DNA of 64,000 nt from a virus. Numbering within the stretch: position 1 is the stretch's first letter; each line of letters opens with the position of its first letter. This document shows positions 37,225 to 48,205 of the stretch, in pieces. Made by a program: the position numbers and the translations under genes. The stretch is from positions 48,768-112,767 of IMG/VR virus record IMGVR_UViG_2716884425_000003. One strand, 5' to 3'. The notes under the pieces were generated by a model. The model was not told the DNA's origin, searched no databases, and was given only the letters and a program-made list of their open reading frames with translations.

Positions 37225-38202
37225 CTATAAATCTTCAAATTCAGTATCATATTTATATTTATAGTGAGAAACCGTTCTTGCTATTCCTTTCTCAAATGTA
37301 ATTTTCGGTTTCCATTTTAACTCTTTTCTAATTTTGGTATTATCTATAGCATACCTAAAATCATGCCCAAGTCTGTCTTCGATAAACTCTATACAGAGAT
37401 CGGGCTCTACTTTTAAAAGATCGCATATAGCATAAACAACTTCAAGATTTTTCTTTTCGCAATTTGAACCTATATTGTAAGTTTCGCCAGCCTTGCCTTT
37501 TTGTAGTATTTTTAGTAATGCTTCACAATGGTCGTCAACATGAATCCAATCTCTTATGTTTTGTCCATTTCCATATACAGGGATTTTCTTTCTGTTTAAA
37601 ATGGAATTAATGATTTTTGGAATAAACTTCTCTTCGTTCTGATAGGGACCGTAGTTATTGGAGCAATTTGATATCGTGACGGGCATTTGATAGGTGTGGT
37701 AGTATGAACGTACCAAATGATCAGAAGACGCCTTAGAAGCCGAATATGGGTTCCTAGGGGCATATGGAGTATCTTCTGTAAACTTCTTGTCTCCCTTTTC
37801 TAAATGACCGTATACTTCGTCAGTTGAAATGTGATGAAACTTTTGGATATTATGCTTTCTGGCAGCCTCTAAAAGATTAAGCGTCCCTAAGACATTAGTT
37901 TCCACAAAAGTTCTCGGTCCGGTTATAGAATTATCGACATGAGACTCTGCGGCAAAATGCATAACGTGAGTAATTCCATATTTAAGAAAGGTGGCGTCTA
38001 CGTATCTAGCGTCTCTTATATCTACGTTAGCAAATTTTATTTTTGGATGGTCGAATACGGCATCGGCAATATTACTATATTTAGACGCGTAAGTTAAGCT
38101 GTCCATAACCACCATTAATTTAGAACCACACCTTTTCTTACGCATATACTTAAGAAAATTTGCGCCTATAAACCCTGCTCCACCTGTGATTAATATATTC
38201 AT
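37225..38202 (-). CDS. rmlB: dTDP-glucose 4,6-dehydratase
   Basis: ITGGAGFIG, HFAAESHVD, HISTDEVYG, YSASKA, NCSNNYGP. Confidence 0.95.
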   Translation of the reverse strand: MNILITGGAGFIGANFLKYMRKKRCGSKLMVVMDSLTYASKYSNIADAVFDHPKIKFANVDIRDARYVDATFLKYGITHVMHFAAESHVDNSITGPRTFVETNVLGTLNLLEAARKHNIQKFHHISTDEVYGHLEKGDKKFTEDTPYAPRNPYSASKASSDHLVRSYYHTYQMPVTISNCSNNYGPYQNEEKFIPKIINSILNRKKIPVYGNGQNIRDWIHVDDHCEALLKILQKGKAGETYNIGSNCEKKNLEVVYAICDLLKVEPDLCIEFIEDRLGHDFRYAIDNTKIRKELKWKPKITFEKGIARTVSHYKYKYDTEFEDL

Positions 38203-38861
38203 TAATTGTGTACAAATAAAACTTTGTTTGTTTTTATTATAAGGTTTTTACCGGTATTTTTATAAAAATGATTTGATTGTAAAATATCTACAAAAAAGTG
38301 CCAATCTGCATCGTGTATCACGTGATTAAATCCTACGTCTTTTACTATGTTGTTTTTGATTGCTGCGCTAGCCATATCTATGCAGGTATACGCAAGGCTA
38401 GCTTCCAGTAAGCAATAATTCTCAGCATTGCGAGGATATTTCGCTGGATGATTCCCCTTGTTCTCGTGAGAATGTATACCGTTCCAAAATAAAAATTTTA
38501 AATCTGGATTACTTTTGAAAGACTGTATAACTTCATCAACAAATATGGGCACGTGGTAATTATCACCGTTAGTTAAAACTGTTACGTTAGAGTCTTCTTT
38601 GATATACTTCTTAATACCAAATTTTCTAGAGGCGTGACCCCAAGGCTCTTTAGCTTTTTCCGGAGTATGATCTAAAATAATTTGATCTGTTAGGTAACCA
38701 TTATCTTGTAAGTCTTTTTTTAGATTGTGATAAAAATCATCTTCTCCATCGTGAATGATGTATAAATTCCAGTTCGGATTAGTTTGACACTTAAGTGAAT
38801 TAATTAAGCACTTAAGCGGTTCATCCTGATGATAGGTGACGGCTATAATATCTACTTTCAT
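38202..38861 (-). CDS. Glycosyltransferase family 2-like
   Basis: IIAVTY...WNLYIIHDG...LTNGDNY...ADWHF GT-A pattern. Confidence 0.75.
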   Translation of the reverse strand: MKVDIIAVTYHQDEPLKCLINSLKCQTNPNWNLYIIHDGEDDFYHNLKKDLQDNGYLTDQIILDHTPEKAKEPWGHASRKFGIKKYIKEDSNVTVLTNGDNYHVPIFVDEVIQSFKSNPDLKFLFWNGIHSHENKGNHPAKYPRNAENYCLLEASLAYTCIDMASAAIKNNIVKDVGFNHVIHDADWHFFVDILQSNHFYKNTGKNLIIKTNKVLFVHN

Positions 38862-39523
38862 GTTGCACCTTGATATTTATGACCCTCTAAACCAAAATTA
38901 ATAAAGGGATTTAAAGAATATATATTAACTCCGTAAACATCTTTTAGTTTTTGTTTTACTTGAATCGTATGATCTTGTATAGATCCCCTAACCCATGCTG
39001 CGTATTGATTTAAATCACTTAAACCGGAAGAAGGTCGAACTTTGGTATGATAATCTTTAATAGTAACCTGTCCATCTAAAACTCCGCAATCATGACCTGC
39101 TAAAATTATATTCTTACAACCCATATAAGCGGCCAAATGCATGGCGCTAGTAATTGTAGAAAAACTAACCACGATATCGTCACTGCCAACAACTTCTAAC
39201 TTGGGACGCTCTAGTGGTTTATCTGGGTGACTAAAAAAATAATGAGGAAAACTAGCATCGTTTCTTTCGCCATTAGGGTTACCGCAAGCCCACTCTGAAA
39301 GAATAATTTTGCTGTCATTGTGGTCTAGCTTGTCAAAGCCGCCAGCTTCCTTAGATACAGTATAATTACAATTAAAAAAATTAGGCAACCCATTAACGCC
39401 CATACTTAATTTGTTATTAAAAAAACTACCATCAATGTGATTCATTGAGGGGCCAGAAGCCAACACCCACATGTCTTCGCCAGAGTGAATATTTTTTAAT
39501 TCTGTATGCGGAATCCTTACCAT
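38858..39523 (-). CDS. DUF115/Maf-like glycosyltransferase
   Basis: VLASGPSM...MGVN...TITSAMHLAAYMGCKNIILAGHD. Confidence 0.75.
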   Translation of the reverse strand: MVRIPHTELKNIHSGEDMWVLASGPSMNHIDGSFFNNKLSMGVNGLPNFFNCNYTVSKEAGGFDKLDHNDSKIILSEWACGNPNGERNDASFPHYFFSHPDKPLERPKLEVVGSDDIVVSFSTITSAMHLAAYMGCKNIILAGHDCGVLDGQVTIKDYHTKVRPSSGLSDLNQYAAWVRGSIQDHTIQVKQKLKDVYGVNIYSLNPFINFGLEGHKYQGAT

Positions 39524-46436: not shown

Positions 46437-47303
46437 TTATTCGTATTTTAATATATTTGATAAGTAGTCCTTATATTCACAGTTAGGAATATCTTTTATT
46501 AGTTTTCTTAATTTTGTTTTGTTTATGTTACCTTGTTTGTATGTAGCCTCTTCTGGACAGCCAATTTTTATACCTTGACGCCTTTCAAGGGCTTGAACGT
46601 ACGCAGAGCTATCAAACAGGCTACTAGATGTGCCCGCATCGAGCCACGCTGTGCCTCTGGGGAGTTTAAATACGTTTAGGGTGTCATTACGTAGGTAAGT
46701 TTTTATAACGTCTGTAATCTCAAGCTCGCCCCGTTTAGAGGGTCTTAAATTTTTAGTGATTTCTATCGCATTATAGTCAAAAAGGTAGAGTCCCGGAATG
46801 GCATAGTTACTTTTAGGCTTCTTGGGTTTTTCTTCGATAGACCGAATTAAATCTCCGTCCATTTCTATGACCCCATACCTCGTTGGATCGTCCACTTGAT
46901 AACCAAAAACGGTTGCCCCAGAATTAAAATTAAAAAAAGCTTCACTCAATACGTCATTAGCACCATGGTAAATGTTGTCTCCAAGAATCAAAGCTATTCC
47001 ATCATCTTTATCAAGGTGTTTCCTAGCTACGTTTAATGCGTCAGGAATGCCTATAGGAGCCTTTTGAATTGCATAGTGTAGCTTTATACCCCATTGCTCA
47101 CCATCACCCAATAATTGCTTAAAATTAGGTAAGGCCTCTTCAGAAGATACAATACAAATTTCAATAACTCCGTTTTCTATCAAAGTACTTAATGGGTAGT
47201 AAATCATCGGCTTATCAAAGACTGGCAATAATTGTTTGTTTATCACCGTCGTGTTTGGGTATAGCCTCGAACCAGTTCCTCCTGTTAAAATCACACCTTT
47301 CAT
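46437..47303 (-). CDS. rmlA: Glucose-1-phosphate thymidylyltransferase
   Basis: Start MKGVILTGGTGSRLYP (47303); KQLLPVFDKPMIYYPL; RGELEITD; WLDAGT. Confidence 0.95.
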   Translation of the reverse strand: MKGVILTGGTGSRLYPNTTVINKQLLPVFDKPMIYYPLSTLIENGVIEICIVSSEEALPNFKQLLGDGEQWGIKLHYAIQKAPIGIPDALNVARKHLDKDDGIALILGDNIYHGANDVLSEAFFNFNSGATVFGYQVDDPTRYGVIEMDGDLIRSIEEKPKKPKSNYAIPGLYLFDYNAIEITKNLRPSKRGELEITDVIKTYLRNDTLNVFKLPRGTAWLDAGTSSSLFDSSAYVQALERRQGIKIGCPEEATYKQGNINKTKLRKLIKDIPNCEYKDYLSNILKYE

Positions 47304-47350
47304 TTGACTTCTTAATATTATACGGGTATTCTTATAAAAAAGCAAGCACA

Positions 47351-48205
47351 ATGATCACTCAAGAGTATATTCCAAGTAAATACAAATTTCAAGTTCTATT
47401 AAGTGTCTATAACGCCGAACCATACATAGCAAGATGTTTGGAAAGTCTCAACGAATCTCTTAGCGGTTACGATTGGATTCTTTTGTATGGAGATGATCAA
47501 AGTGAAGATGATTCTACAGTCGAGATGGCAAGGTACGCTAGGCAGTTAAATTGTGATAAGATTCACCTTTTTGAATTCGACAAAGCGAAAAATGTAGGTC
47601 AAGCAAAGAACAGGTTGATCAAAGAAGCTCACAATTATAAAAAAGAATATCCATATATACTATTTATGGACGCGGATGACGAAATGTTGCCGGGTAGACC
47701 AAAATTAGCAGAGTATATAGAAGACAAAAACCAGTACGCCGTTGGTTCTTACGAAAGGCTCACTGTCAATAATCAAAAAAATATTATGAAAAATAATAAA
47801 TTCATTGAAAGAATGGGTTTTGGGCCTTGGGCTACCGTTTTTCATTGTGACTTTTTTGAAGGAGACGGTCTTTTCCCAGAAGACGAGGTGTGCAACACCG
47901 GGTTTGAGGACATCATTACTTGGCATCATTTAAAACAAATTAAAAATATAGATCCTATTATTGCTCCACTCGAAGACCCTGTCCATCGATACATCGAACG
48001 AAACGGTAGTACATCAAAGCAAGAAAATGTAAATTATCAAAGAAACTTATATTGGGGCATTTCCAAACTTATCAAAGAAAATCAAAGAGATGTATATACA
48101 AATCCACCTAGCCGCCAAGAAGCCGAAGAGTCCATGGATCGATATATAGAGTCAAAAAAACAAAAAAACACCGATTCCGCTTTACATCCATTAGATAATG
48201 TGTAA
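47351..48205 (+). CDS. Glycosyltransferase family 2
   Basis: Probable start MITQEY at 47351; SVYNAEPYI, DDQSED, FMDADD (DxD). Confidence 0.85.
   Translation: MITQEYIPSKYKFQVLLSVYNAEPYIARCLESLNESLSGYDWILLYGDDQSEDDSTVEMARYARQLNCDKIHLFEFDKAKNVGQAKNRLIKEAHNYKKEYPYILFMDADDEMLPGRPKLAEYIEDKNQYAVGSYERLTVNNQKNIMKNNKFIERMGFGPWATVFHCDFFEGDGLFPEDEVCNTGFEDIITWHHLKQIKNIDPIIAPLEDPVHRYIERNGSTSKQENVNYQRNLYWGISKLIKENQRDVYTNPPSRQEAEESMDRYIESKKQKNTDSALHPLDNV

Follow-up and report, generated by a model that had tools for sequence, protein, structure and literature searches.

In bacteria, the islands for O-antigen, capsule and flagellin glycosylation hold variable genes between conserved flanks. Giant-virus fibres are glycosylated with rhamnose, as in Mimivirus, which has L780. 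The marine phage locus described here resembles the bacterial islands in its conserved flanks, its exchangeable sugar-synthesis and transferase modules, and its rml and neu genes, but it lies in a phage genome, lacks Wzx, Wzy and any further membrane step, and uses an NRS/ER-type rhamnose enzyme. That epimerase/reductase is L780-like, and the locus shares virus-encoded soluble transferases with mycobacteriophage virion glycosylation; in both viral systems glycosylation has been shown, whereas here the genes suggest it. The cell-wall synthesis/modification clusters of cyanophages P-SSM2, S-SCSM1 and S-SCSM2R include KdsA and KdsB (PMC12801897). They, too, combine glycosyltransferase and NDP-sugar genes with an ulosonate synthase and a cytidylyltransferase in a marine phage; however, the latter two are NeuB and NeuA here, the lineage is another one (TerL at most 27% identical to that of deposited phages), and alleles are exchanged at a fixed slot. 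The CMP-Kdn pathway, known from Bacteroides thetaiotaomicron and Prymnesium parvum (PMC6200933), likewise runs from synthase through phosphatase to CMP-synthetase and has no genes dedicated to an amino-sugar precursor; the phage cluster differs in having no KdsC and in carrying extra tailoring genes, and homologues of its synthase NeuB1 stand beside KdsC-type phosphatases.

The window analysed comprises 64,000 nucleotides (positions 48,768 to 112,767) of IMG/VR record IMGVR_UViG_2716884425_000003, which is 136.5 kb long and 79% complete. It comes from an uncultured marine tailed phage of a probably lytic lineage; TerL was found, and portal, capsid and tail genes were read off the ORF list. We found that the locus is a conserved rhamnose frame with an exchangeable slot, not one fixed pathway (Table 1). 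All 13 cluster genes at 37225-48205 are uninterrupted, intact ORFs with the expected motifs, so the genes named in the original prediction are present and not pseudogenised. The contiguous operon that it described holds for the minus-strand run, in which the ORFs from NeuB to RmlB overlap their neighbours by 1-29 nt and the intact slot ORFs are predicted to be translationally coupled; this run extends past RmlB into PhoH and then ClpP. The second GT2 gene, GT2b, falls outside the operon because it is divergent from the other genes (its start at 47351 was taken from relatives' gene calls). An independent marine metagenome contig (L302) has the same slot allele, which rules out an assembly chimera for the locus.

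Table 1. Features of the glycan locus and the fibre region, numbered from the first letter of the window.
Feature	Position	Strand	Evidence
Thr/Ser-rich collagen-like fibre genes, candidate glycan acceptors	5766..11910	-	PF01391; tail-fibre PHROGs
GT4 gene inverted within fibre genes	6409-7530	+	GT4 match
PhoH, conserved downstream anchor	36423..37208	-	PF02562
RmlB, dTDP-glucose 4,6-dehydratase (fixed frame)	37225..38202	-	TIGR01181 440 bits vs cut-off 365; 99% identical in L001
GT2a, short virus-type GT2-like glycosyltransferase	38202..38861	-	PF00535 weak; 93% identical in L001
Single-domain Maf/sialyltransferase-fold protein, 221 aa	38858..39523	-	model pLDDT 92; fold matches
Exchangeable slot, 6.5 kb	about 38,900-45,400	-	identity vs L001; borders approximate
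PhyH-type Fe(II)/2-oxoglutarate dioxygenase	39517..40266	-	PF05721 E 2e-9
Atypical SDR, NeuB* partner	40238..40882	-	PF13561; nearest solved relative 1o5i, E 1e-25
NeuB*, divergent NeuB-fold protein, first gene of NeuB*-SDR pair	40882..41616	-	70 homologues; fold and tree
Aldo-keto reductase (D37, Y42, K66, H104), radical SAM partner	41613..42473	-	PF00248 E 2e-25; motif
Radical SAM enzyme, N-terminal B12-binding-like domain, CxxxCxxC at 234	42470..43951	-	PF04055 E 6e-18, above cut-off
NeuA-type CMP-ulosonate cytidylyltransferase	43948..44592	-	PF02348 E 2e-25; PseF (5e-37) closer than KdsB (1e-7)
NeuB1, short SAF-less PEP-dependent ulosonate synthase	44589..45413	-	PF03102 E 3e-79
Conserved hairpin, then T run, in 96-nt spacer at slot's upstream border	45442..45462	-	relatives compared; z-scores -2.0 to -3.3
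NRS/ER-type bifunctional 3,5-epimerase/4-reductase (fixed frame)	45510..46433	-	closest PDB matches (see text)
RmlA, glucose-1-phosphate nucleotidyltransferase (fixed frame)	46437..47303	-	PF00483 E 3e-55; 98% identical in L001
Sigma-70-like promoter candidate upstream of rmlA	47317..47345	-	TTGCTT, 17 nt, TATAAT; consensus match only
GT2b, GT-A glycosyltransferase, DADD motif at 107	47351..48205	+	PF00535 E 4e-19

The fixed frame consists of RmlA, a plant/giant-virus-type epimerase/reductase and RmlB, with PhoH after them (the anchor with which we gathered 80 related loci) and the slot between. In the closest relatives GT2b also belongs to it, being 95% identical in the relative L001 and 42-51% in other close relatives. 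The best PDB match of the epimerase/reductase was Arabidopsis 4qqr (E 2e-26), then Mimivirus 7jid (7e-17), with bacterial RmlD behind (6e-9); the enzyme carries a GxTGxPNVDxCE block and is nearer the plant and Mimivirus enzymes than RmlD. No RmlC was called between rmlA and rmlB, and this enzyme appears to replace both RmlC and RmlD. Together the three frame enzymes would make NDP-L-rhamnose, the most certain of the steps proposed here. The layout of the promoter candidate is repeated in L001, L113 and L118. Several structural genes are preceded by a GTGTA motif; rmlA has the sigma-70-like candidate instead.

The borders of the slot are sharp. In L001 the flanks are 89-95% identical to those here: nucleotide identity is 90% across 28001-38905 and 89-95% across 45142-48904. 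Its slot holds other genes, and blastn gave no match between the flanks; in 60-nt sliding windows, identity drops near 45400 from 0.98 to less than 0.8 and recovers near 38900. At least seven slot alleles exist, several of them without NeuB, and in some relatives the slot is empty. The allele here comprises NeuB1, NeuA, a radical SAM-aldo-keto reductase (rSAM-AKR) pair, a NeuB*-SDR pair, PhyH and a Maf-fold protein. The spacer hairpin at the upstream border is near-identical in L001, L113 and L118 despite different downstream genes, and in L007 the stem is retained with a longer loop. NeuB, NeuA and the Maf-like gene are all present in five phages and all absent from 23, in a count whose contigs are related, some of them redundant and some truncated. 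Through homologous recombination, the conserved flanks, hairpin spacer included, could swap the slot and so change the glycan. Such serotype-like exchange is what the locus adds to known phage sugar cassettes.

NeuB1 has 274 residues and no C-terminal SAF domain, and it retains the catalytic, PEP-binding and metal residues E7, K35, Q37, K113, S116, S138, S196, H198, E217, H219 and D230 (equivalents of E25, K53, Q55, K129, S132, S154, S213, H215, E234, H236 and D247 in Neisseria numbering). It has Met at the E134-equivalent position and FQKR where the anchors of our tree have xQT. Its scores lie under the NeuB and PseI equivalog cut-offs (282 vs 400 and 211 vs 340 bits). In the NeuB phylogeny that the original prediction had proposed as a check, it falls in a SAF-less clade (SH support 99) apart from the PseI, LegI-like and Moritella anchors, which are SAF-bearing Pse/Leg/Neu enzymes with no biochemically characterised Kdn synthase among them. 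On these grounds (no SAF, scores and separate clade), we rejected NeuB1 as a Neu5Ac, Leg or Pse synthase (NeuB, LegI or PseI). A KdsC-type phosphatase stands near its homologues in 10 of 18 bacterial and 32 of 59 metagenome loci, and NeuC in only one locus of each set. A small HAD protein lies near NeuB in 10 of 25 viral loci and has a homologue elsewhere in the record. Homologues of NeuC, LegC/PseC, GmhA and KdsC were absent from the incomplete 136.5-kb record, which agrees with the earlier suggestion that the precursor comes from outside the cluster. We infer that NeuB1 takes a Kdn-like phosphorylated route: it would join PEP to a host aldose phosphate, a host or phage HAD phosphatase would strip the phosphate, and NeuA would then make the CMP-sugar. 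The substrate would most simply be mannose-6-phosphate, giving a Kdn-type acid, an assignment to which we give an even chance.

The sugar may be tailored by enzymes from two gene pairs and by PhyH. The second NeuB of the original prediction keeps the NeuB TIM-barrel fold (model TM 0.86 to 6ncs, E 1e-14), but is doubtful as a synthase. NeuB* forms a separate clade (SH support 100) without K53, S213, E234 and H236 (Neisseria numbering; H236 is the second metal ligand), which over 62 sequences are replaced by T33, G171, W/F192 and an invariant Y194; the equivalents of E25, Q55, K129, S132, S154, H215 and D247 are kept. Because four catalytic or metal residues are missing, NeuB* is probably not a canonical synthase, and its active site is probably remodelled. 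In the SDR alignment, an invariant S120-x3-R124 replaces YxxxK. NeuB* and SDR are adjacent in 21 of 27 loci and are a portable gene pair, which perhaps supplies a precursor or performs redox epimerisation. For the predicted B12-dependent radical SAM enzyme, the CxxxCxxC core and PF04055 match bear out the radical SAM part, while B12-binding PF02310 stays below its cut-off (25.9 vs 32.1 bits) and no NCBIfam methylase cut-off is reached. The aldo-keto reductase gene lies directly downstream in five of five homologue contexts, and bacterial surface-glycan clusters contain this portable pair too. Related enzymes include AprD4/AprD3, a radical SAM dehydratase with its reductase, and the class B methylases GenK and GenD1 (PMC5461906). 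The phage pair resembles AprD4/AprD3 as a sugar-acting radical SAM enzyme with a fixed reductase partner, although the partner here is an aldo-keto reductase and the AprD4 match is far under cut-off, as are the matches to methylase models. Since a reductase always follows the radical SAM gene, a dehydratase/reductase reading fits as well as methylation, and the pair could either dehydrate or oxidise the acid by radical chemistry and then reduce it, or methylate it at carbon. Thus, of the methylated, sialic-acid-like sugar and rhamnose originally proposed, the CMP-ulosonate and NDP-rhamnose routes stand, whereas methylation is just one possibility and deoxygenation another. PhyH, found in all five NeuB alleles and in one NeuB-less allele (L118), may hydroxylate the acid.

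The Maf-fold protein is probably a CMP-ulosonate transferase, judging from its model. Bacterial Maf acts on flagellin. The Maf of M. magneticum (PDB 5mu5; about 600 aa) shares the central sialyltransferase-like (DUF115) domain with the phage protein, whose gene also lies beside NeuA and NeuB; in contrast, Maf has flanking N- and C-terminal domains, and the phage protein is single-domain in a phage without flagellin. All of the model aligns within residues 259-508 of the 632-residue 5mu5 chain (Z 13.4; rmsd 3.6 over 174 aligned residues, 10% identity), and the central catalytic fold is shared with the GT42/GT29 sialyltransferases CstI (Z 9.6) and ST8SiaIII (Z 8.9). The predicted Maf/DUF115-like transferase is thereby upheld at the level of fold, in a tie with HPPK 8sd5 (Z 12.5) and with a DUF115 score below the Pfam cut-off (31.1 vs 34.6 bits). 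Foldseek ranked M. jannaschii HPPK (MptE kinase) first (E 5e-5) and Pfam calls the family MptE-like, so the protein might instead be an MptE-like kinase or a non-enzyme in a cluster that only supplies nucleotide sugars, with transfer left to a GT2 or host enzyme. We regard this as quite improbable given the strict co-occurrence with NeuB and NeuA in the lineage, the GT29 genes that fill other NeuB clusters, and a weak PHROG match to alpha-2,3-sialyltransferase. GT2a scores under the PF00535 cut-off (19.9 vs 23.3 bits), and in the ESM Atlas it falls into clusters of chiefly viral, GT2 character (score 0.98).

With this transferase, the soluble GT2s would build a rhamnose-containing, acid-capped glycan in the cytoplasm. 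The acceptor would be a protein that the phage itself makes, the likeliest being one on the virion surface, for instance the candidate collagen-like fibres, where T or S is the last residue of 56% of triplets. Virion glycosylation is our likeliest use for the cassette, a call that could go either way. The reading as a whole, from slot exchange to this use, is favoured by the frame and slot in relatives, the identity breakpoints, the NeuB/NeuA/Maf co-occurrence, the Maf/CstI/GT29 fold, the separate clade and phosphatase neighbours of NeuB1, the soluble proteins, and the lack of C5 methylase, ThyA and tyrosine integrase in five genomes. Precedent for glycosylated virions comes from mycobacteriophages (Freeman 2023, as cited in PMC12619734). 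The reading is weakened by the Maf/MptE tie, the rmlA promoter candidate, the position of the cluster outside the structural gene block, and fibres that do not track the island: a 91%-complete relative without the RmlD-like gene has collagen fibres that are equally Thr/Ser-rich. The promoter candidate would suit a cassette that alters the envelope glycans of the infected host, be they on LPS, capsule, flagellin or pilin: its soluble transferases and new nucleotide sugars would enter host pathways, and the change would block competing phages or grazers. Published work usually reads cyanophage cell-wall gene clusters in this way (PMC12801897). Also in its favour are the homologues of rSAM-AKR and NeuB1 in bacterial surface-glycan loci and the action of bacterial Maf on flagellin. 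We consider it unlikely, however, as the cassette encodes no membrane protein, flippase or polymerase, and all its proteins look soluble (top 19-residue hydropathy 1.35, with no transmembrane-strength segment). A tyrosine integrase was likewise absent from five lineage genomes (two at least 90% complete; positive control detected), which makes lasting lysogenic conversion unlikely and sets the locus apart from the gtr-type serotype-converting cassettes of temperate phages with their membrane flippase/transferase. The superinfection exclusion by host-surface remodelling originally proposed is weakened accordingly. Hypermodification of phage DNA against host nucleases would suit the allele turnover and the virus-dominated clusters of GT2a, and phage glycosyltransferase clusters put diverse sugars, Kdo and heptose included, on 5hmC (10.1101/2023.12.21.572611). 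Those clusters, though, encode a C5 methyltransferase together with a 5-methylpyrimidine dioxygenase, or else a hydroxymethylase, whereas PF00145 (C5 methylase) and PF00303 (ThyA family) were not found in this genome and four relatives (two of the five genomes at least 90% complete; positive controls detected). A Tet/JBP search, run without a positive control, was blank. We hold DNA hypermodification to be very improbable. The slot could also be a recombination sink through which sugar genes of other phages or hosts transit with no single working pathway: NeuB1 groups with that of L304 (72%) rather than with the NeuB of the sister phage L007, L113 has an otherwise similar allele without rSAM-AKR, and some relatives have an empty slot. 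This, too, has little probability, for the ORFs are intact and coupled, synthase, activator and transferase always travel as a set, and the same six genes reappear together in L304, reordered.

Marine phage sugar-gene clusters are usually read as host-surface modifiers, without test, and we found no publication that describes a phage particle bearing a nonulosonate. We see an even balance for and against a serotype-like glycan locus in which frame and slot provide rhamnose and a tailored Kdn-type CMP-acid for a glycan on a phage-made protein, with the slot swapped by recombination. More tentatively, the lineage may be widespread and have virion "glycotypes", with a rhamnose glycan on the particle and a recombination-switched cap, here an undescribed Kdn-like acid made through two uncharacterised enzyme pairs. 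Near-identical phages that differ only in the slot are natural allele pairs: each gene set is linked to a single glycan, and the glycosylated target becomes open to test. NeuB1 matched only two of 50,697 deposited phage records and no PHROG family, yet NeuB has at least 316 matches in viral metagenome contigs, so cultured phages seem for the most part to lack its chemistry. The two portable gene pairs suggest nonulosonate reactions not described before.

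Eighty related viral loci were collected through their phoH gene, and in the closest of these the order is conserved as RmlA, an RmlD-like enzyme, a variable set of genes, RmlB, and PhoH. When the window was compared with one such locus (L001), DNA identity was 90% over 28001-38905 and 89-95% over 45142-48904, with no matches in between, and sliding identity placed the borders of the divergent stretch at ~38,900 and ~45,400. The locus is a frame with an exchangeable slot of ~6.5 kb. At least seven kinds of slot content occur among related loci (listed in the table); in some relatives the slot is empty, and NeuB is missing altogether from a 100%-complete relative that carries the frame. 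A hairpin in the spacer at the upstream border is nearly identical across phages differing in their downstream genes; it may act as a terminator or attenuator and double as a recombination anchor. A second, smaller variable site flanks rmlA on either side, where relatives carry a methyltransferase-like or unknown protein.

Slot contents and coordinates of the features discussed (record, the whole viral record; other loci are related viral or metagenome sequences)
Feature	Sequence	Position (strand)	Remark
C2H2 zinc finger and ERCC4 nuclease domain protein	window	31404-32357 (-)	
Sulfotransferase family 2 gene	window	34750-35484 (-)	
GTGTA(A/T) motif	window	37218-37223; 48200-48205	also before several structural genes
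GT2a	window	38202-38861 (-)	
DUF115 (Maf-fold) protein	window	38858-39523	
SDR	window	40238-40882	
NeuB*	window	40882-41616	
Aldo-keto reductase	window	41613-42473	
Radical SAM protein	window	42470-43951	
NeuB1	window	44589-45413	
Second GT2	window	47351-48205 (+)	
Hairpins and G/C runs	window	48529-48650	
Small HAD phosphatase	record	126424-126795	outside the window
Other glycan-related genes	record	3083-4174; 8356-9456; 10998-11645; 13639-14841; 123377-123940; 130186-130590; 130574-131284; 132950-133399	outside the window
Second variable site	L001; L007; L002	2460-3104; 2655-3239; 1178-2014	
NeuB-cupin fusion	L113	3749-5296	
Heptose-NeuB cluster	L104	1053-9471	
Slot content A	window		the window's own
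Slot content B	L001		other NeuB (59%), NeuA (53%), PhyH (27%), another Maf-like gene
Slot content C	L113		NeuB-cupin fusion, NeuA, NeuB*, SDR, PhyH, Maf-like; no radical SAM-aldo-keto reductase pair
Slot content D	L118		DegT, TylF, acetyltransferase, different PhyH; no NeuB
Slot content E	L002-L005, L008, L009		TOD1/MUCI70-type GT, asparagine-synthase-like amidotransferase
Slot contents F, G	L006 and L007		further NeuB sets

The region 37225-48205 holds 13 intact ORFs. Pfam and NCBIfam confirm RmlB, a GT2-like protein, DUF115/MptE-like, PhyH, SDR, two NeuB-family proteins, aldo-keto reductase, radical SAM, NeuA, the RmlD-like enzyme, RmlA, and the second GT2, so that every gene named in the original prediction was recovered, three of the matches (GT2a, DUF115, and the B12-binding domain) lying under the Pfam cut-off. 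The contiguous operon it described holds for the 12 minus-strand genes, in which overlaps of 1-29 nt run from NeuB to RmlB and the run extends into PhoH and ClpP, but not for the last GT2, which is divergent. Pseudogenisation of the cassette is ruled out, as there are no stops, motifs are intact, and the changes in NeuB* are family-wide. The same allele was found on an independent metagenome contig. The source record (136.5 kb, 79% complete), which corresponds to NCBI accession GCA_003209975.1, contains a terminase and genes read as portal, capsid, and tail, and its TerL has at most 27% identity to that of any deposited phage. We did not accept the “provirus” label in IMG/VR as evidence of lysogeny. 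A gene for a zinc finger and nuclease domain protein, kept in the lineage, lies immediately upstream of the large terminase subunit gene, and a sulfotransferase gene lies just downstream of ClpP, with some relatives having one here or nearby.

A GTGTA(A/T) motif stands at most 70 nt (mostly 15-31 nt) upstream of 13 of 129 ORF starts, including those of phoH and a portal-like gene. A late-promoter link of the island was rejected, since the motif, found ahead of phoH and several structural genes, is absent before rmlA and neuB; rmlA has a sigma-70-like promoter candidate instead. Counts in the promoter scan were not above those in shuffled sequence. Strong hairpins and G/C runs cluster right after a small ORF (48215-48502), where GC rises towards a short-gene region.

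For the RmlD-like protein, Arabidopsis NRS/ER and Mimivirus L780 are far stronger matches than bacterial RmlD, and an enzyme of this type explains the absence of RmlC. From these sequence matches we infer that the frame encodes a three-enzyme route to NDP-rhamnose.

Within the slot, NeuB1 keeps its catalytic, PEP-binding, and metal residues, lacks the SAF domain, and scores under the NeuB and PseI cut-offs. In a FastTree phylogeny, it falls in a SAF-less clade separate from the PseI, LegI-like, and Moritella anchors; the position of the NeuB* clade, which carried a long-branch-join warning, was left uninterpreted. An environmental group of SAF-less NeuBs has been described (PMC8208679). Near NeuB1 homologues of at least 45% identity, a KdsC-type phosphatase occurs in 10 of 18 bacterial loci (two of these supplied the query sequences) and 32 of 59 metagenome loci, compared with 1 of 21 loci around more distant NeuBs, while NeuC occurs in one of the 18 and one of the 59. 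The place of KdsC is often filled by a small HAD in viral loci. A small stand-alone HAD phosphatase is encoded elsewhere in our record; it is common in the lineage, near PhoH in L010, L011, L014, L031, L040, and others, and often lies by NeuB in other viral contigs. The original prediction had remarked that precursor genes were not visible in the window, and this extends to the whole record, in which NeuC, LegC/PseC, GmhA, and KdsC were not found (at 79% completeness). The Kdn pathway consists of a synthase, a phosphatase, and a CMP-synthetase (PMC6200933), and the ulosonate core of this phage appears to follow the same logic, with a presumed substrate to match.

Related loci combine NeuB with other sugar genes. 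The NeuB-cupin fusion of L113 has weak D-lyxose isomerase and mannose-6-phosphate isomerase matches and may supply an aldose precursor. In L104, heptose-pathway genes (GmhA-, GmhB-, HddC-, and GHMP-kinase-like) are joined with three NeuB-family genes, including NeuB*-SDR; speculatively, heptose phosphate and PEP could there yield a ten-carbon acid. A deposited, unannotated genome of the cyanophage family (MH319754.1, Marine virus AG-345-L05, Kyanoviridae; L124) carries a SAF-less NeuB inside a sugar gene cluster.

The slot also contains two portable gene pairs. The NeuB* family numbers at least 70 proteins, which have the NeuB fold and form a clade of their own; another NeuB is usually found nearby. 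Across 62 sequences, equivalents of E25, Q55, K129, S132, S154, H215, and D247 are kept, but K53, S213, E234, and the metal ligand H236 are replaced, the last by an invariant Tyr. The second NeuB of the original prediction is thus a conserved protein with the NeuB fold that probably does not work as a canonical synthase. Its partner SDR, with S-x3-R where YxxxK is expected, adjoins NeuB* in 21 of 27 distinct loci (three others are cut by contig ends and three have no SDR). In the other pair, the aldo-keto reductase gene lies directly downstream of the radical SAM gene in all five homologue contexts, of which three also show NeuB and the other two NeuC-like and PglD-like genes. Peptide-pattern searches of IMG/VR for the radical SAM protein and the aldo-keto reductase, which reach close relatives only, gave no matches. 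AprD4/AprD3 is a deoxygenation pair, while GenK and GenD1 are methylases (PMC5461906), and a fixed reductase partner recalls the former as much as the latter. Consequently, the methylation originally proposed becomes one of two options, deoxygenation fitting equally well.

The 221-aa DUF115 protein gave a confident fold model, with structural matches to the Maf central domain (Z 13.4), the MptE kinase (12.5), CstI (9.6), and GT29 enzymes; Foldseek ranked the kinase first. The Maf-like protein had no matches among PDB sequences or deposited phages. The structural tie is broken in favor of a transferase by co-occurrence: within the lineage, 5 phages have NeuB, NeuA, and a Maf-like gene together and 23 have none of the three, although these are related contigs and not independent events. 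The protein is predicted to be Maf-like in action, but should not be classed as Maf, whose flanking domains it lacks.

What the glycan decorates can be approached by weighing the alternatives. Sugar clusters are known in marine cyanophages, where they are interpreted as host-surface modifiers (PMC12801897), and the original prediction offered host-surface remodelling beside virion glycosylation. Here, all cassette proteins look soluble and no tyrosine integrase was found in five genomes in which positive controls were detected, which together weigh against lysogenic surface conversion. Searches of five genomes, again with positive controls detected, found neither a C5 methylase nor a ThyA-family enzyme, which weighs against known routes of DNA glycosylation; a Tet/JBP search, run without a positive control, gave no match.

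Virion glycosylation is favored by this elimination and by precedent. The genome encodes Thr/Ser-rich collagen-like fibres with a GT4 gene among them, kept beside the fibres in three close relatives. However, neither the fibres nor their Thr/Ser content track the island: one relative genome (G004) is without the RmlD-like gene and yet has 62% T/S-ending triplets, while another (G003) has the frame and 18%. The sigma-70-like promoter candidate of rmlA, in place of the GTGTA motif, likewise does not tie the island to the structural genes. On balance, we give virion glycosylation about even chances. Genes scattered elsewhere in the record, identified mostly by eye, include an NDP-sugar dehydratase (read as GDP-mannose 4,6-dehydratase) and GT-like, sulfotransferase-like, methyltransferase-like, and two cytidylyltransferase-like genes; additional sugars, and sulfate, may be part of the glycan.

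Viral contigs often carry NeuB, whereas deposited phages rarely do, and our literature searches turned up no description of this lineage or of a NeuB-NeuA-Maf cassette in a phage. This locus contributes allelic exchange within a fixed rhamnose frame, together with two uncharacterised enzyme pairs.
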